Notes under the pieces: model-generated | Database searches by the model: none | What the model was told of the DNA's origin: nothing | Seen by the model: only the letters and a program-made list of their open reading frames with translations | Virus record (IMG/VR): IMGVR_UViG_2728369608_000005 | Reading direction: 5' to 3' (one strand) | DNA length: 36,144 nt | From: a virus | Lineage: Duplodnaviria > Heunggongvirae > Uroviricota > Caudoviricetes | Part shown: positions 1 through 36,144 of the stretch, piece by piece | Position numbering within the stretch: position 1 is the stretch's first letter | Layout of the letters: each line of letters starts with the position of its first letter | Translations under genes and position numbers: made by a program

Positions 1-502
1 ATGGCAAACCTACCTGAAACCCCGCAGTGGGAAGAAGGCATCTACCAGATTGAGGTCTCTGACCCCGTTCTGGGCGGGCCTGACGGAATTTCTAACCGTC
101 AGGGTAAACAACTGGCCAGCCGCACGCTGTACCTGAAGCAACAGGTTGAAAAAGGCGGTTCTGACCTTGCGAAACATATCGCGGCAGCAGACCCGCATAC
201 CCAGTACGCACCGAAAGCCAGCCCGACATTCACCGGCACACCAACAGCGCCTACGCCTGCAAATAGCGATAACAGCAAGAAGCTGGCGACGACGGAGTTT
301 GTGGCCAAAGCACTTGCGGCGCTTGCAGGCAGCGCCCCTGAGACGCTGGATACGCTCAAAGAGCTGGCTGATGCCCTCGGCAACGATCCGAATTTTGCGA
401 CCACTGTGTTGAACAAGCTGGCGGAGAAGCTGGCCAAAGACCAGAACGGCGCTGATATTCCTGACCCGGCGCTCTTTGTCAAAAACCTTGGTTTGGGAGA
501 AG
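1..502. repeat. Left copy of a perfect >=502-bp inverted repeat (fibre constant region); outer limit cut by window edge
   Basis: Reverse complement of 1..502 equals 2423..2924; first mismatch at 503/2422. Confidence 0.9.
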
Positions 503-19623: not shown

Positions 19624-21146
19624 CAGTAATCCTCCAGCATACGGGCCGCCTGACGACGACGGCGTGAGCTTGCCTTCACCGGCCCTTTGTTAATTTCACG
19701 ACTGGCGAAGTACGCCAGCGCCAGTGCGATGGCTGAATCCCCGTGACGCTTGCCACTGTCAGACTTCGCTTTTGAGCGCTGTTCCGGCACGCGGGGAACG
19801 CCGTTTACCACCTGAACGGCCCGCAGGTCATCCAGCGTATCTTCATCCTTCGGTAAATCCACCAGGTTGCCATCTTCCAGCGCAGCCTTGACCGGCGGCA
19901 TATGCTCGCGATACCAGTTTTCAGTTGGCATCACCTGCTTAACCCGGCTGGAGCCGTAGCGCTGCATGGCGTATTCGGCGAGGTAAGAGCCGTTACCACG
20001 GGCATCAAGCGCCGCGCCCATCAGGTTTGGCAGGCCGTCCATCAGGTACCAGGCGATTTGCTCCTGCTGTTTGAACGGCACGTTGCGCAGCTCCAGCACG
20101 AACGGCACGCGGCGAACCAGGTTCTTCTCCTGCAGCAGGGGATAGTCCACCGACAGGTCACCGCTGCGGCCAAAGTCGCGACCCAGGAAAGAACGTGCGT
20201 CAGCGGGGAGCGCCTCCAGCAACGGTTTCAGATGTGTATCAAGCCACTCCTGCGTCTCGCTCCAGCGGACATCATCGGGCTTCAGCTCGTAACCCTCCGG
20301 GCAGGTCAGACGCAACACCGGCGTGCCAGCCGACATACGGGACTCAATCAGGGCGCGGGACAGCCAGGCTCCGCCACCGTTGGCCGGAACACAGTCAAGC
20401 TCCTCCGATGCACCGGCACCGTAGAATTTGTACACCGATGCCATCCACGCCTGCTCGGATGCTTCCGACCATTCTTTCCCGGTACGCAGGCAGACGCGGT
20501 GGAACAGCCCTTGGGACACAGCCTCCTGAAAAGTAATGCGATGTACGCTGCCCCCCTGACGCCCGGCCCGGATATCACCGATAAGCGTATTGAACGGGTT
20601 ATCGTCACCGTCATGGGTGGAGATAACGCGCACTTTACCGCCCCAGATAAGCATCGCCAGCGCCGCCTTCAGCAGTTCGTCCAGTTGCTCATGGAACGCC
20701 GCTTCGTCGATAACGATGATGCCCTGACGGCCACGCAGGTTAGACGGACGGCTGGAGAGCGCGACAACGCGGAAGCCGGAGTCAGGGAATTTGATGGTGT
20801 AGGTCTTGATATGCTTGTCGTCTTCGTCCTCTTCCCAGAAACCCTCTTCGATTTCACTGGCGGCATAGTTGAATGCCCGCGCCCACATCGCACACGCCTG
20901 GATATATTCGACGGTCATGTCCTGGTTATAGGCGATGTAATACACGTTCATCCCACCCGCAGGGGCTGAAGAGGCTGCGGTCAGCACGTCATCGGACGCC
21001 TCAGCCCAGGTGATACCGGTTCGGCGGCTCTTCTCAATCACCTTGAGCGGAGACGTGTCAGCCACCCAGCGCTGCTGGTAGGGCATCAGAACGGCGGGGA
21101 TATCCAGCGCCGAGGTGTCAGGCAAAACAGGAGCAAGCTGGCTCAT
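19623..21146 (-). CDS. Terminase large subunit (Mu gp28-like)
   Basis: 507 aa with nuclease-like acidic motifs, upstream of portal. Confidence 0.8.
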   Translation of the reverse strand: MSQLAPVLPDTSALDIPAVLMPYQQRWVADTSPLKVIEKSRRTGITWAEASDDVLTAASSAPAGGMNVYYIAYNQDMTVEYIQACAMWARAFNYAASEIEEGFWEEDEDDKHIKTYTIKFPDSGFRVVALSSRPSNLRGRQGIIVIDEAAFHEQLDELLKAALAMLIWGGKVRVISTHDGDDNPFNTLIGDIRAGRQGGSVHRITFQEAVSQGLFHRVCLRTGKEWSEASEQAWMASVYKFYGAGASEELDCVPANGGGAWLSRALIESRMSAGTPVLRLTCPEGYELKPDDVRWSETQEWLDTHLKPLLEALPADARSFLGRDFGRSGDLSVDYPLLQEKNLVRRVPFVLELRNVPFKQQEQIAWYLMDGLPNLMGAALDARGNGSYLAEYAMQRYGSSRVKQVMPTENWYREHMPPVKAALEDGNLVDLPKDEDTLDDLRAVQVVNGVPRVPEQRSKAKSDSGKRHGDSAIALALAYFASREINKGPVKASSRRRRQAARMLEDY

Positions 21147-21691
21147 GAGGCAATCCCCAGAATTTCACGACGCAGCGCCTGTACCGCATCGGTTGACAGT
21201 CCACCCTTACGGGCAATTTTCTCGGCGTTGCTGGCCGCCTGCTGCGCTCTGGCCCGGACTTCAGACTGGAACTTCTTGAGGTTGACGGAAGCGCGGGACA
21301 GCGTGGCCACGTTCTTTGCCACCTTCGACAACAGCGCCACGCGCTCTTTGGGGTCGACTTCGCCTTCTTCCGCTTCCTGCAGCTGGACGATGCTCTCGAA
21401 CAGCTCGGTCTGAATCAGGGCGATCACCGCCTCCGAACGTGCATCCTGATCGTCAGCCGCACCTTCGGTCAGCATCCGGGCCGCTTCAGTGGCTGCACGG
21501 ATAGCGCCATAGCGGCGCTCAATCTTCTGGCCATAGCGATGGATAGCCGATTTGCTGATGACATAACCCTGCTCACGCAGCAGGGACTCCAGCTCGTTAT
21601 ACCCGCTGAAGCCGGATTCAGTCAGCGCCCGCTCAAGCCAGCGACGCACGTCTTCCGGCAGCTTTTCTATCGTGCTGCGTCTGGCCATCAT
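21143..21691 (-). CDS. Mu gp27-like protein (putative small terminase / DNA-binding)
   Basis: 182 aa, N-terminal motif EKLPEDVRRWLE...SKSAIHRY, directly upstream of large terminase. Confidence 0.65.
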   Translation of the reverse strand: MMARRSTIEKLPEDVRRWLERALTESGFSGYNELESLLREQGYVISKSAIHRYGQKIERRYGAIRAATEAARMLTEGAADDQDARSEAVIALIQTELFESIVQLQEAEEGEVDPKERVALLSKVAKNVATLSRASVNLKKFQSEVRARAQQAASNAEKIARKGGLSTDAVQALRREILGIAS

Positions 21692-28558: not shown

Positions 28559-30328
28559 ATGAGTGCCGCCCTGACTGAACGACTGGTTTATGTTGCCCGC
28601 GCGGCACGTGACGCGGGGCATGGTAAGCGTGGTGCGATATATGATGCCGCCTGCGCCGAACTGGGCATTTCCCGCGCCACCCTGCTGCGCAAGCTGAAGG
28701 AGGTATCAGTGACTGACAAACGTAAAAAACGCGCCGATGCCGGGCGCAGTGCCCTGAGCCGCGACGAAGCCGCGCTGATATCTGCCACGCTGCGCGAGGC
28801 CACCCGTAAGAACGGTAAGCGCCTGTATTCCATCGCGGATGCGGTGGAGACCCTGCGGTCAAACGGCTTTATCACTGCTGGCAGAACGGACGAGGCCACA
28901 GGCGAGTTTTTCCCGCTGTCCGAGGACACCATCAGCCGCGCCCTGCGGAACTATGGTCTGCACCCGGAACAGCTTGACGCACCGGCCCCGTCGTCCGAGA
29001 TGGCCAGCCTGCATCCCAATCACGTCTGGGAGATTGATGCCTCACTTTGTACGCTTTACTACCTGAGCAACGGCCATAAAGGGTTGCAGGTGATGGACAG
29101 CTCGAAGTTCTACAAGAACAAGCCTGCCAACATCGCCCGCATCGCCAGTGACCGCGTGTGGAGTTACGAGATTACCGACCATACCAGCGGCTGGATTTAC
29201 GTTGAGTACGTGATGGGTGCGGAATCTGGTGAGAACCTCTGTTCTGTGCTTATCAACGCCATGCAGGAGCGCGGCGGCGCGGACGTGCTGCACGGCGTGC
29301 CGAAAATACTCTACCTTGATCCCGGTTCGGCGAACACCGCTGGCATGACGAAAAACATGTGCCGCTCGCTGGGCATCAATCTGATAGCGCACAAGCCGCA
29401 TAACGCCCGCGCCACCGGGCAGGTGGAAAAGGCCCGTGACATTATCGAACGTAAACTGGAGCCGGGTCTCAAATTCCAGCCGGTTCATAGCCTGGACGAA
29501 CTGAACGCGCTGGCGGTGAAATGGCGCAGCCACTTTAACGCCACGGCGGTCCACAGCCGCCACGGTAAAACCCGCACGGATATCTGGCTGAAGATTACTG
29601 CTGGCCAGCTGAAAAAAGCGCCATCCGTTGAGGTTTGCCGCGAACTGGCGGTGGCCGCACCGGAACTCCGTAAGGTCACACCAAAACTGCGCGTCTCGTT
29701 CCGGGGCAATGAGTTTGACGTTTCGACGGTACCGGGCGTACTGGTCGGCGAAAAACTGATGATTACCCGTAACCCGTGGCGCAGCGATGTGGCGCAGGTG
29801 GTGCTGACCGGTGAGGACGGTCACGAGACGTTCTTCCTAGTCGAGGAGGTCAGAAAGAACGAGTTCGGCTTTGCCGAAAGCGCGGCGGTATTTGGCGAAA
29901 ACTACAAAGCCCTGCCGGAGACCCCGGCGCAGACGGCGGCAAAAGAAATCGAAGAGCTGGTTACGGGCACCGATAACGCCACCGATGCAGCTGCTGCACG
30001 CAAGGCGAAGGCGCTGCCGTTCGGCGGGCGACTTGACCCGTACAAACATATCGACGACACCACGCTTCCGGCCTATATGCCGAAGCGCGGTCAGGCTTCA
30101 GACGTGCGCGGGCCGCGTATTGAGCAGCGTCCGCTGACCCATGTGGAGGCGGCGAAAGCCCTGCGCGAGAAGTTTGGCGCTAACGGCCATATCTGGACGC
30201 CGGAACATTACCGCCAGTTAACGGCACAGTACCCGGACGGCGTACCGGAAGCCGCTCTGGATGAGGTCATGGTCACCCTGACCACTCCGGCCCGCAACAG
30301 CGTTATCAGCATCGTTAACGGTAACTGA
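28559..30328 (+). CDS. DDE transposase (Mu A-like function)
   Basis: 589 aa; candidate DDE residues in HVWEIDAS, LYLDPGSANT and a downstream Glu; followed by the B-like ATPase. Confidence 0.8.
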   Translation: MSAALTERLVYVARAARDAGHGKRGAIYDAACAELGISRATLLRKLKEVSVTDKRKKRADAGRSALSRDEAALISATLREATRKNGKRLYSIADAVETLRSNGFITAGRTDEATGEFFPLSEDTISRALRNYGLHPEQLDAPAPSSEMASLHPNHVWEIDASLCTLYYLSNGHKGLQVMDSSKFYKNKPANIARIASDRVWSYEITDHTSGWIYVEYVMGAESGENLCSVLINAMQERGGADVLHGVPKILYLDPGSANTAGMTKNMCRSLGINLIAHKPHNARATGQVEKARDIIERKLEPGLKFQPVHSLDELNALAVKWRSHFNATAVHSRHGKTRTDIWLKITAGQLKKAPSVEVCRELAVAAPELRKVTPKLRVSFRGNEFDVSTVPGVLVGEKLMITRNPWRSDVAQVVLTGEDGHETFFLVEEVRKNEFGFAESAAVFGENYKALPETPAQTAAKEIEELVTGTDNATDAAAARKAKALPFGGRLDPYKHIDDTTLPAYMPKRGQASDVRGPRIEQRPLTHVEAAKALREKFGANGHIWTPEHYRQLTAQYPDGVPEAALDEVMVTLTTPARNSVISIVNGN

Positions 30329-30338
30329 GGAGGAAGGC

Positions 30339-31505
30339 ATGCTGGTACTGAAGCAACAACTGAAAGAGGCCCGCATCCCGCAGGCGGCGGTGGCAAGAGC
30401 CGTCGCCGTTTCCGAGGCCACGCTGGCCCAGATTGTGAACCATAACGAGTGGCCCCGCACCAGCCCCGAAGAGGTACGCCAGCGTCTGGCGTTGTATCTG
30501 GAAAGTAAGGGGATTGATACAGCGAAAAGTTTTGATGCTGCACAGGGCGCTGTCACACCCCGTACAGCGGGTACTACCGATAAAACCAACCTCAGTGAGG
30601 AAGAGAACATGTTACTCAAAAAGCAGGTGTTATTTCCAGCAACCAAAAAAGCGTTTGGTCTTTTCCGTGACCCGTTCGCCGATGAAGCCATGCAGGGCGC
30701 GGACGATGTGTTCACCACGCCGGATATCCGCTACGTGCGTGAGGCGCTGTTCCAGACCGCCCGCCACGGTGGCTTTCTGGCGGTTATCGGCGAGTCCGGT
30801 GCGGGTAAATCCACGCTGCGCCGCGACCTGATTGAACGCGTCAACCGCGAGAACGCGCCGGTGATTGTTATCGAGCCATACATCATCGCCATGGAAGACA
30901 ACGACGTGAAGGGCAAAACCCTGAAGGCGGCAGCTATCGCCGAGGCCATCATCAGCACCATCGCGCCGCTGGAGAGTATCAAACGCAGCCAGGACGCCCG
31001 TTTCCGCCAGTTGCACCGCGTCCTGAAGGACAGCAGTCAGGCGGGTTTTAGCCACGTTCTGGTGATTGAGGAGGCCCACAGTCTGCCCATTCCGACGCTG
31101 AAGCACCTCAAACGCTTCTTTGAGCTGGAATCCGGCTTCAAAAAACTGCTGTCCATCGTGCTGATTGGCCAGCCTGAGCTGGCGGACAAACTGTCCGAAC
31201 GCAACATGGAAGTCCGTGAGGTCGTCCAGCGCTGCGAGGTGGTTGAACTGCTGCCGCTGGACAACAGCCTCGAAGAGTTTCTGACGTTCAAACTGCAACG
31301 CGCCGGTAAGCAGCTGTCTGACATCATGGACGCCAGCGCAGTGGAAGCCGTCCGCGCCCGTCTGAGCAATCTGGGCAGCAACCGTAAAAGCATGGTCAGC
31401 CTGCTGTATCCGCTGGCCGTCAGTAACCTGGTGATAGCCGCCATGAATCTGGCTGCTGAAATCGGGGTTCCGCAGGTCAACGCCGACGTCGTCAAAGGAG
31501 TTTAA
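30339..31505 (+). CDS. Transposition ATPase (Mu B-like, AAA+)
   Basis: 388 aa; N-terminal HTH-like region; Walker A GESGAGKST; Walker B-like VLVIEEAH. Confidence 0.8.
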   Translation: MLVLKQQLKEARIPQAAVARAVAVSEATLAQIVNHNEWPRTSPEEVRQRLALYLESKGIDTAKSFDAAQGAVTPRTAGTTDKTNLSEEENMLLKKQVLFPATKKAFGLFRDPFADEAMQGADDVFTTPDIRYVREALFQTARHGGFLAVIGESGAGKSTLRRDLIERVNRENAPVIVIEPYIIAMEDNDVKGKTLKAAAIAEAIISTIAPLESIKRSQDARFRQLHRVLKDSSQAGFSHVLVIEEAHSLPIPTLKHLKRFFELESGFKKLLSIVLIGQPELADKLSERNMEVREVVQRCEVVELLPLDNSLEEFLTFKLQRAGKQLSDIMDASAVEAVRARLSNLGSNRKSMVSLLYPLAVSNLVIAAMNLAAEIGVPQVNADVVKGV

Positions 31506-33866: not shown

Positions 33867-34071
33867 ATCAATTGTATGTGCCCTGTTCTGGTATGGTCTC
33901 GTGGGGTGGTGTACTGCTGAACTGCACCGCCGCTCAGGTTTTTACTCACGTTACAGCGGTGCCGGACACTGGATCAGTTGGGCCGTTATGTTCATGTGCT
34001 GGCCTGTTGCGCTTCCTTTATATGTCGATTATATCGGTGGCGCAGGTAAAAGGAGCGACGATGATGACTAA
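33856..34071 (+). CDS. Small membrane protein
   Basis: ATG at 33856; hydrophobic Trp-rich segments (ALFWYGLVGW, WAVMFMCWPVALPLYV). Confidence 0.45.
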   Translation: MMAESIVCALFWYGLVGWCTAELHRRSGFYSRYSGAGHWISWAVMFMCWPVALPLYVDYIGGAGKRSDDDD

Positions 34072-34489
34072 GCAGCGTCTTATTCAACTCATCCATATTG
34101 CCCGCAATGACCTCCAGATGGATGAGGACACCTACCGCCAGATGCTACAGGGGCTGACCGGCAAAGCCTCAACCAAAGGGATGGATACCCCACAGCTAAA
34201 CCGCGTGCTGGAATCCATGAAAAATAAAGGCTTTCGCATTAAGCCTGCCGGGAAAGCCAAGTCCGGCTTACCGCTGGATAGTCATCCGCAGTCAAAGAAA
34301 ATCCGTGCGCTATGGCTTGAAATGGCTGCCGCAGGCATCGTCCGAGACAGTTCAGAGCAGGCGCTGGCGCTGTGGGTTAAACGGGAAACAGGCATCAGCG
34401 CGTTACGCTGGCTCAGCAATGAGCAGGCAAGTAGCGTGATTGAGAAACTGAAGAAGTGGCAGCGCAGAGCTGCGGGAGTGAAGCAATGA
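34061..34489 (+). CDS. gemA: GemA-like regulatory protein (Mu gp16-like)
   Basis: ATG at 34061 after AGGAG; RLIQLIHIARNDLQMDEDTYRQML ... KKIRALW ... ALRWLSNEQASSVIEKLKKWQ. Confidence 0.75.
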   Translation: MMTKQRLIQLIHIARNDLQMDEDTYRQMLQGLTGKASTKGMDTPQLNRVLESMKNKGFRIKPAGKAKSGLPLDSHPQSKKIRALWLEMAAAGIVRDSSEQALALWVKRETGISALRWLSNEQASSVIEKLKKWQRRAAGVKQ

Positions 34490-34875
34490 GTGACCTGAAT
34501 CAGTTTCGTAGTAAAGGGCCGGAACTGTTGGTAGAACTGGCACAGCATACCTCTGAGACCGTCCGCGAGATTATTGATATCGAACCCGCAGTTGCCGACC
34601 AGATTGGTCAGGCCGTCGCGAACCGCATGATGCAGGTCTGGGGTGGGCAAAACGTCTATTTTCCGATGGGCATGGTCTGGAAGGTCAGTCAGCGCGACCG
34701 GGAAATCTTCCTGGAGTTTGACGGACGCAACCATCACGAACTGGCCCGCAAATTCGGTGTTTCACTACAGTGGGTTTACAGCGTGGTGAAGCGGGTCAGA
34801 AAAGAAGAATTGGATCGGATGCAGGGCAAACTGTTTGATGGTGACTCTGATTCAGAGAAGGTGGAAAATAGCTAA
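34486..34875 (+). CDS. mor: Mor/C-family transcriptional activator
   Basis: 129 aa from the ATG at 34486; GGQNVYFP ... REIFLEFDGRNHHELARKFGVSLQWVYSVVKRVR. Confidence 0.75.
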   Translation: MSDLNQFRSKGPELLVELAQHTSETVREIIDIEPAVADQIGQAVANRMMQVWGGQNVYFPMGMVWKVSQRDREIFLEFDGRNHHELARKFGVSLQWVYSVVKRVRKEELDRMQGKLFDGDSDSEKVENS

Positions 34876-34894: not shown

Positions 34895-35224
34895 ATGGCC
34901 AGACCAAGCAATATTGATAAACTGCCAGAGGATGTTCGTGCCGAGCTTCATAGCGAATTATCGCGCACAAACTTCACCGGTTATGAATGGCTCTCGCTCT
35001 GGTTAGCCGATAAAGGTTACAGCGTATCGAAGTCAGCCATTCAGCGTTATGCTGTCGCGAATAAAAATGAAATTCTGGGCCTACAGCAAGAGAGTCGATT
35101 CCATCAGGCACAGCTTCGACTTAATGCGCTTGGTGTAGCGGCAACAATTTCACCAGGAAAAGACCTTGGAAGTTTGAAGAATGATGCAGATGCACTACTA
35201 AAATGGGCGTTGTTTGGTTACTGA
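34895..35224 (+). CDS. gp27-N-terminal-like paralog (DNA-binding?), last gene before the prophage end
   Basis: ATG at 34895 after AGGAGG; N-terminus IDKLPEDVRAELHSEL...SKSAIQRY parallels the gp27-like protein at 21143..21691. Confidence 0.55.
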   Translation: MARPSNIDKLPEDVRAELHSELSRTNFTGYEWLSLWLADKGYSVSKSAIQRYAVANKNEILGLQQESRFHQAQLRLNALGVAATISPGKDLGSLKNDADALLKWALFGY

Positions 35225-35230
35225 ATGAGT

Positions 35231-35256
35231 GGGGGGCATCGTCCCCCTTAATTTTC
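35231..35256 (+). terminator. Rho-independent terminator at the end of the early operon
   Basis: GGGGGG-catcgt-CCCCC hairpin followed by TTAATTTT, directly after the stop at 35224. Confidence 0.5.
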
Positions 35257-35320
35257 ATATACTGTAAATGAATTACATAACCTTTTGTTTGTCTCTTCCC
35301 ATCACGTACCATAAAGTCCC

Positions 35321-35356
35321 ATTTATCTTACGGTACCCCCTATATTTATCTCACGT
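35321..35356. repeat. Terminal direct repeats, candidate transposase-binding sites
   Basis: ATTTATCTTACGG (35321..35333) and ATTTATCTCACGT (35344..35356); element ends ...TCTAATCA at 35363. Confidence 0.5.
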
Positions 35357-35363
35357 CTAATCA

Positions 35364-36144
35364 GGCGGCGAAAGTGGGCGGCATTGTTGCCAACAACACC
35401 TATCCGGCAGATTTCATCTACCAGAACATGATGATTGAGAGCAACATCATTCACGCCGCGCATCAGAACGACGTGAACAAACTGCTGTTTCTCGGATCGT
35501 CCTGTATCTACCCGAAACTGGCAAAACAGCCGATGGCAGAAAGCGAGTTATTGCAGGGTACGCTGGAGCCGACTAACGAGCCTTATGCTATTGCCAAAAT
35601 CGCCGGGATCAAACTGTGCGAATCTTACAACCGCCAGTATGGACGCGATTATCGCTCGGTCATGCCGACCAACCTGTATGGCCCGCATGACAACTTCCAC
35701 CCGAGTAATTCGCATGTGATCCCTGCATTGCTGCGTCGCTTCCACGAGGCGACGGCACAGAATGCACCGGACGTGGTGGTGTGGGGCAGCGGTACACCGA
35801 TGCGCGAATTTCTGCACGTCGATGATATGGCGGCGGCGAGCATTCATGTGATGGAGCTGGCGCACGAAGTCTGGCTGGAGAACACCCAACCGATGCTGTC
35901 GCACATTAACGTCGGCACGGGCGTTGACTGCACTATCCGCGAGCTGGCGCAAACCATCGCCAAAGTGGTGGGTTACAAAGGTCGGGTGGTTTTTGATGCC
36001 AGTAAACCGGATGGTACACCGCGCAAACTGCTGGATGTGACACGCCTGCATCAGCTTGGCTGGTATCACGAAATCTCACTGGAAGCGGGGCTCGCCAGCA
36101 CTTACCAGTGGTTCCTTGAGAATCAAGACCGCTTTCGGGGGTAA
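35364..36144 (+). pseudogene. fcl: GDP-L-fucose synthase gene, 5'-truncated by the prophage insertion
   Basis: Reading frame from 35365 encodes [26 protein letters not shown]... to the C-terminus ...[11 protein letters not shown]; the N-terminal ~62 codons are absent from the window. Confidence 0.85.

Follow-up and report, generated by a model that had tools for sequence, protein, structure and literature searches.

The 139 bp at positions 35225–35363 of the DNA analysed here – a stretch of 36,144 nt, hereafter the window – are very likely one terminus, the mor-proximal one, of a BcepMu-like transposable myovirus prophage of ~35.6 kb that inserted into the E. coli host gene fcl by DDE transposition. 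Our analysis directly established the exact boundaries of both ends of the element, an inverted pair of sites at each end, a 6-bp target duplication, insertion at many sites, and homology of the transposase and the ends to BcepMu. The terminus is a true transposable-phage end and one that is ordinary for its family. Near-identical copies are present in RefSeq, a partial copy is present in GenBank, and the terminal repeats of the family have been published: the finding is thus already known in kind. Features are collected in Table 1.

Table 1. Features of the phage end, its host flank, neighbouring phage genes and related mini-elements.
Feature	Position	Strand	Remarks
DDE (rve-type) transposase	28559–30328	+	68% identity over 581/589 aa to BcepMu gp09
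AAA+ ATPase (ExeA-like)	30339–31505	+	Pfam AAA_22, E = 3e-20; PHROG 296 'DNA transposition protein', E = 1e-89
GemA-family protein	34064–34489	+	Pfam GemA, E = 3e-41
Mor-family transcription activator	34486–34875	+	Pfam Mor, E = 1e-42; beside the end, as is BcepMu gp01
Last phage gene before the end, 109-aa protein	34895–35224	+	Pfam Phage_Mu_Gp27, E = 6e-15, residues 7–58
Terminator-like hairpin GGGGGGCATCGTCCCCC, then TTAATTTTC	35231–35256	+	Follows closely on the last gene of the early operon
Possible degenerate third site CTTCCCATCACG (reverse complement CGTGATGGGAAG)	35295–35306	+	26 bp inward of the inner core
Inner 23-bp terminal repeat unit	35318–35340	+	Core ATTTATCTTACG at 35321–35332; repeats the outer core in direct orientation
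Outer 23-bp terminal repeat unit	35341–35363	+	Core 35344–35355; terminal ...ATCA-3′; CA cleavage dinucleotide 35362–35363
6-bp target-site duplication GGCGGC, right copy (fcl nt 186–191)	35364–35369	+	Left junction of the same assembly
3′ part of host fcl (GDP-L-fucose synthase, nt 186–966; 781 nt)	35364–36144	+	100% identity to fcl of many E. coli
Mini-element, E. coli KCJ3K291	L025 32122–39923
Mini-element, E. coli CX21	L069 3994–11606
Mini-element, E. coli LR536431	L070 3994–11846
Mini-element, E. coli AW1.7	L071 3994–11747
Mini-element, E. coli ZH063 (ST131)	L072 3994–10367
Mini-element, Erwinia tracheiphila	L030 4083 to L034 3906

The terminal repeats

Downstream of the stop codon of the last phage gene the prophage ends in a 139-bp non-coding tail, the 3′ terminus of which reads ...TCTAATCA-3′ (in longer form ...ATTTATCTCACGTCTAATCA). 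An earlier note on this DNA had described two 13-bp direct repeats, 23 bp apart, just inside the end. Both the repeats and their spacing are real, but their length is 12 nt: the cores match at 11 of 12 positions and their starts lie 23 bp apart, the outer core being ATTTATCTCACG (reverse complement CGTGAGATAAAT). The degenerate motif ATTTATCKYRCG occurs only twice on both strands of the 36-kb window, against 0.03 occurrences expected from shuffled sequence. Pure chance as an origin for the repeats is rejected because the cores turn up again, inverted and equally far from the terminus, in BcepMu and at the opposite end of the element.

Counted inward from the terminus, the core CGYGMGATAWWT occupies positions 9–20 and 32–43. 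The outer unit recurs inverted at the prophage's left end and in BcepMu, in both of which the inner repeat stands at positions 32–43. Sixteen units drawn from eight ends give the consensus CG.G.GATAAAT at unit positions 9–20, with the inner site displaced by 1 bp in two of the eight ends compared. The suggestion that these repeats are putative transposase-binding sites gains from this: their position, symmetry and conservation are as expected of such sites.

The junctions with fcl

In order to define the host boundary we queried 5,426 complete E. coli genomes with window 34900–36144 using megablast. Matches to fcl were found in 4,689 genomes, and all among the matches listed begin at query position 465, which is window 35364; the phage–fcl junction itself is absent from all 5,426. 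Alignment to an intact fcl allele places the first host base, 35364, at fcl nt 186. The base before it is A in the window and C in native fcl, and the boundary is therefore exact and unambiguous. That host fcl resumes at 35364, as the earlier note had it, is borne out, and comparison with the uninterrupted allele identifies insertion of the prophage as the cause of the interruption.

The window corresponds to contig ATLY01000025.1 of assembly GCA_001466755.1, from contig position 37. Because this contig breaks inside an invertible tail-fibre segment the left end of the prophage is absent from the window. We located the left junction on contig ATLY01000027.1 of the same assembly, where host sequence ...CTGGC, followed by GGCGGC, gives way to TGATGCGCCGCGCGATAAATGCGCCCATTTCCGTGAGATAAATGG; in fuller form, ...GACCAGGTCTATCTGGCGGCGGC on the host side abuts TGATGCGCCGCGCGATAAATGCGCCCATTTCCGTGAGATAAATGGCATCGC... 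on the phage side, beyond which lies a Gin-type invertase gene. The left flank ends in ...CTGGCGGCGGC, immediately before TGATG, at fcl nt 191, and the right flank begins at nt 186: the duplication is therefore GGCGGC, a total of 6 bp. The pentamer GGCGG, predicted for this junction on the precedent of Mu, is indeed present, but only within the longer GGCGGC, and so the 5-bp duplication of Mu is not what is seen. This second end bears both repeats in inverted orientation (L023 4192–4237), and thus the matching terminal repeats anticipated by the earlier note.

The junction is also apparent at the level of protein. A 6-bp duplication predicts a read-through ORF comprising Fcl residues 1–63 and 36 phage-encoded residues. 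Exact look-up of the Fcl–phage fusions predicted from duplications of 4–8 bp found neither the 5-bp nor the 6-bp prediction, because the left end in this strain carries three amino-acid-changing differences further in; a homology search recovered a 99-aa protein (P0016) on ATLY01000027.1 that is 97% identical to the predicted fusion. Fcl truncations of 63 and 64 aa were rejected as junction proteins, these being contig-end fragments of native fcl unrelated to the phage.

Copies at other sites and the 6-bp duplication

The same phage is present in five other complete E. coli chromosomes (CFSAN051542, GON1437, AF22, C31 and 571) at 98.4–99.9% identity. All sibling matches stop exactly at window 35363, with different host sequence beyond each, and the prophage end proposed there is upheld. 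The five siblings lie in napH/napB, the yahG–yahJ region, a lambdoid tail gene, a pfl-type gene and dedA. Both ends were recovered in all five, and the element reads 5′-TGATGCGCCGCGCGATAAATGCGCCCATTTCCGTGAGATAAATGG...CCATTTATCTTACGGTACCCCCTATATTTATCTCACGTCTAATCA-3′: both ends thus carry the same two cores, inverted, at positions 9–20 and 32–43. The termini are TG...CA (5′-TGAT...ATCA-3′), in keeping with the CA 3′ terminus that had been claimed. Each sibling insertion is flanked by its own exact 6-bp duplication – TCATGA, TTCACC, CGCTGG, CCAGAA and CTCAAC – so that six insertions in total, by copies at least 98% identical, occupy six unrelated sites. More broadly, the gemA–mor region of the prophage is matched in ~640 of the 5,426 complete E. 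coli genomes.

The duplication extends across the family. A diverged relative in xylR of E. coli strain 3-72 is flanked by GCTTCT. A 43-nt degenerate end pattern picked out 43 stretches in species-representative genomes of Beta- and Gammaproteobacteria, and paired ends recovered from it show 6-bp duplications, namely CCACGA in Burkholderia sp. Ac-20344 and GGCTGT in Erwinia tracheiphila. An exact 6-bp duplication accompanies 14 of the 15 paired ends, where the chance per match is 1/4096; the 15 include the window's own, the five siblings, strain 3-72, Ac-20344, six mini-elements (see below) and a BcepMu prophage. This last, in B. cenocepacia NCTC13227, which we take to be the J2315 strain, is the sole exception: exactly 36,748 bp separate its ends (contig NZ_UAQZ01000016.1, 270179–306926; L026 6179, L035 2926), and its flanks, ...GAGCATG and AATTGGA..., carry no target duplication, in contrast to the 6 bp beside the fcl prophage. 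A later rearrangement could account for its absence. The literature that we searched gave no statement of a 6-bp length, nor any usable account of the duplication length of BcepMu or the end structure of Tn552; the primary description of BcepMu may give a length.

Relationship to BcepMu and other elements

The gene content of the prophage points in the same direction. Late genes for lysis, a Mu-like head and a P2-like contractile tail lie on the minus strand, while a divergent early operon on the plus strand, from ~27.3 kb to the end, reads outward towards the 35363 terminus and encodes a DDE transposase, an ExeA-like AAA+ ATPase, GemA, Mor and a small gp27-family protein. The transposase matches PHROG 310 (transposase, E = 3e-144); its Pfam rve score of 31.4 bits falls just below the 32.6-bit gathering threshold, HTH_8 is weak, and Mu-specific Pfam domains are absent. 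A sequence search of the PDB returned no MuA chain at E <= 1, just weak or marginal matches to retroviral integrase cores. The ATPase occupies the same position as BcepMu gp08, and by analogy may be a MuB-like target-capture partner of the transposase.

Given the homology to gp09, the lack of a MuA match and the BcepMu gene order, we place the element among BcepMu-like transposable myoviruses rather than the Mu family. PGAP annotation of the copies shows the order mor–gemA–...–ATPase–transposase–...–repressor / lysis–head–P2-like tail, which is shared with BcepMu. The termini of BcepMu and phiE255 (Bcepmuvirus) and of the fcl prophage conform to TGA(A/T)...(T/A)TCA, and the BcepMu ends, TGAAGAGAGGTGAGATATTTCCAAGGGAGAACGCGCGATATTTCC and TGAAGCGCGGCGCGATATTTCAGCACGTCGACGCGCGATAAATTC, align position for position with both ends of the E. 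coli prophage. The core CG(Y)G(M)GATA(W)(W)T stands at positions 9–20 and 32–43 in BcepMu-type elements as in the fcl prophage, with the repeats inverted between ends. A gp09-homologous transposase, TG...CA termini with two 23-bp repeats per end, the gene order and the many insertion sites were all found, as they would be in a BcepMu-type element. '23-bp imperfect direct repeats' have been described at both ends of phiE255 and BcepMu and proposed as transposase recognition sites (PMC2920897), and TG...CA termini and a Tn552-like rve transposase are on record for BcepMu-type prophages (PMC2628397).

There are differences nonetheless. The enterobacterial phage has TGAT...ATCA where BcepMu has TGAA...TTCA. 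Between mor and the end, the fcl prophage carries an extra gene resembling the N-terminal part of gp27 (gp27-N), which BcepMu lacks. At the other end the enterobacterial phage has a Gin-type invertase and an invertible tail-fibre segment, whereas BcepMu has an acyltransferase. Usage also differs: the BcepMu record names the mor-proximal end 'left', which in the orientation of the window is the right-hand end.

A further comparison concerns Tn552 of Staphylococcus aureus, which is a small resistance transposon and not a phage. Its transposase reportedly binds a pair of adjoining 23-bp direct repeats within each terminal inverted repeat and needs the terminal CA-3′, and its duplications are said to be 6–7 bp; the end architecture of the fcl prophage would closely match these features. 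The label itself, as applied to BcepMu-type transposases, comes from the GenBank annotation of BcepMu gp09 ('Tn552/IS1604 rve transposase') and is repeated in PMC2628397. When the transposase was compared by tblastn with 72,556 plasmids, the nearest non-phage matches among those listed were ~25% identical and annotated as IS481-family/DDE transposases; Staphylococcus is neither in the 30 matches listed nor one of the ten commonest genera, and the Tn552 label gained no confirmation from this comparison.

The Klebsiella phage KP12 clone KP12_2 (OM835952.1; L073) is a close relative, with 97.5% nucleotide identity over the terminal 1.4 kb and the same gene set. The record is a partial one, in which the final 42 bp of the mor-side end are missing, such that both cores are cut off or truncated, together with the whole of the left terminus. 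KP12_2 is classified under Vequintavirinae, an unrelated subfamily.

Proposed mechanism and alternative explanations

Drawing on the established chemistry of DDE transposases (Mu, Tn552 and retroviral integrases), we infer how the transposase binds the repeats, the chemistry of cleavage and the part played by the ATPase, as we do the location of pac (below). The transposase (28559–30328) would bind two adjacent 23-bp units at each end – four units – with the core CGYGMGATAWWT at 9–20 and 32–43 of each. It would then synapse both ends and nick after the terminal 5′-...ATCA-3′, and the two 3′-OH ends would be transferred to target phosphates 6 bp apart with the help of the adjacent AAA+ ATPase (30339–31505). 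Gap repair, during lysogenisation, or replication, during lytic growth, would leave the 6-bp duplication GGCGGC.

One alternative is that the element is a true member of the Mu family, which would entail a 5-bp duplication, three sites at each end and a transposase of MuA type. Mu carries multiple ~22-bp transposase sites per end – three at each, unevenly spaced on the left – makes 5-bp duplications, and has an early operon that reads inward from attL. Much is shared with the fcl prophage: TG...CA termini, multiple transposase sites per end, a DDE transposase paired with an ATPase, short duplications at many insertion sites, genes of the Mor, GemA and gp27 families, Mu-like head genes, and the transposition lifestyle. 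Against this stand a 6-bp duplication in 14 of the 15 paired ends, the fcl prophage included; a transposase with no sequence-level similarity to MuA; two clear adjacent sites per end rather than three; an early operon directed outward to the 35363 end; and a P2-like tail module. Duplication length and transposase family rule out Mu-family membership at the level of sequence, and we consider it very improbable. The description of the element as "Mu-type" in the earlier note therefore holds for its transposition mechanism but not for its family, given the BcepMu-type transposase, outward early operon and 6-bp duplication.

Site-specific integration, with GGCGGC as an att core, is less probable still, to the point of being negligible. 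A short direct repeat does flank the element and a serine recombinase gene does lie near its left end, but the recombinase, an invertase of Gin/Hin type, adjoins the invertible tail-fibre segment, the annotation of the phage copies shows no tyrosine integrase in any of them, and the same phage occupies six unrelated sites with six unrelated flanking repeats: it is this diversity of insertion sites that rules the model out. A different question is whether the repeats are bound by another, or an additional, factor – either a terminase-like gp27 N-domain protein, for which they would constitute a pac signal, or a regulator. The gene immediately inside the 35363 end encodes a paralogue of the small-terminase N-domain, and the same kind of gene occurs in the same place in mini-elements. 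The cores, however, are symmetric at both ends and are found also in BcepMu, whose end has no adjacent gp27-N gene, whereas pac is expected at one end only, for which the asymmetric stretch 35257–35317 is a better candidate. We therefore regard such a binder as unlikely and favour binding of the repeats by the transposase.

The remainder of the interval

Beyond the repeats, the interval 35225–35363 comprises the terminator of the outward-reading early/middle operon and a ~70-bp spacer. The terminator-like hairpin attracted 5 overlapping calls in a terminator scan, against 0.7 expected, and its predicted RNA fold has a free energy of -14.8 kcal/mol (z = -2.2). The spacer may carry a weak third site and possibly a packaging (pac) signal. 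With low confidence we designate 35295–35306 a candidate degenerate third site: the sequence is partly kept in the diverged relative of strain 3-72, at its mor-side end (GGTACAAGATGGGAAGA versus GGTACGTGATGGGAAGA), and is absent from the invertase-side end. More speculatively, the asymmetric stretch 35257–35317 is a candidate pac. In BcepMu and phiE255 the virion DNA is reported to bear variable host DNA at its ends and to be packaged by a headful mechanism, and pac has been placed at the 'left' (mor) end (PMC2920897).

The 109-aa protein encoded next to the interval matches PHROG 426 (terminase small subunit). Its first ~52 aa, which share 54% identity with the N-terminus of the phage's small-terminase-like protein (window 21143–21691; DUF3486 / Mu gp27-type), form a paralogue of that protein's N-terminal domain. 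The 109-aa protein may serve to recognise pac or to interfere with packaging. A gp27-N-like gene beside the end, lacking in BcepMu, is a feature also of the mini-elements.

Transposase-less mini-elements

A side observation concerns a family of 6.4–7.9-kb elements with BcepMu-type ends, each end having two repeats and the termini reading TGAT...ATCA or ...TTCA. In E. coli and Erwinia tracheiphila these elements occupy no fewer than six unrelated sites (Table 1), each flanked by an exact 6-bp duplication of its own, and ~81 complete E. coli genomes contain matches to them. E. coli AW1.7 harbours a full-length phage alongside its mini-element. They lack transposase, ATPase and head genes; those that they do carry encode tape-measure-like, Mor, DUF3102-like and HicB-like proteins, along with a gp27-family gene beside the right end. 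The terminal module – a gp27-N gene next to a two-repeat BcepMu-type end – is common to the mini-elements and the fcl prophage.

One deleted architecture recurs at many sites, with a separate duplication at each, and this argues for movement of the mini-elements as non-autonomous units that use the transposase of a helper. It is possible, and we suggest it tentatively, that they are hitchhikers or satellites, natural 'mini-BcepMu' elements that full-length phages like the fcl prophage mobilise in trans and perhaps also package, by way of the pac/gp27-N module common to both. Our literature search found no description of mini-elements of this kind. If they are mobilised in trans, they could matter more than the terminus itself: the fcl insertion illustrates a BcepMu-type prophage end cleanly and in full resolution, and in itself offers little that is new.

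Consequences for the host and for sequence records

In its native context fcl lies in the order gmd–fcl–gmm. The prophage separates the 3′ part from the first 191 nt, and the gene is thereby split into a 191-nt 5′ piece fused to phage sequence and a promoterless 3′ piece. Fcl is needed for GDP-L-fucose synthesis in the colanic-acid pathway, and with fcl split, synthesis of GDP-L-fucose from this locus, and hence of colanic acid, should be lost; from the known pathway the strain is thus expected to make neither.

There are practical implications for the delimitation of common enterobacterial prophages: a 6-bp, and not a 5-bp, duplication is to be expected, together with a TGAT...ATCA boundary. 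The 43-nt degenerate end pattern provides a cheap and specific probe for such elements in Beta- and Gammaproteobacteria.

Several peculiarities of the sequence records deserve mention. Window 1–502 is a perfect inverted copy of 2423–2924 (502 nt), and its first 480 nt repeat the constant part of the tail-fibre gene, at the 5′ end of that gene. The contig that bears the left junction ends in a 22-bp Hin/Gin-like crossover, AAAAACCTTGGTTTGGGAGAAG, which is window 481–502 and has its counterpart at 2423–2444. Evidently the assembly traced a Gin/Hin-type invertible tail-fibre segment in each of its two orientations; those first 480 nt are therefore not a separate gene copy, and it is for this reason that contig and window lack the invertase and the left end.

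In many unrelated E. coli assemblies contigs end at fcl nt 192–194 (L017–L022), at a GCGGCGGCG repeat. These are native sequence with no phage attached, and probably mark an assembly break where the fcl paralogues of the colanic-acid and O-antigen clusters start to coincide; their nearness to the insertion site is a coincidence. Finally, E. coli JCH8249 has a 40.5-kb circular 'plasmid' (NZ_CP132021.1; L003) that consists of the prophage and ~5 kb of yahG–yahJ chromosomal flank, as in GON1437, the phage match again stopping exactly at window 35363, and the chromosome record of the same strain starts with the same phage end (NZ_CP132020.1, 565–703). The record probably represents not a plasmid but either an artefact of assembly or amplification of the region surrounding an active prophage.
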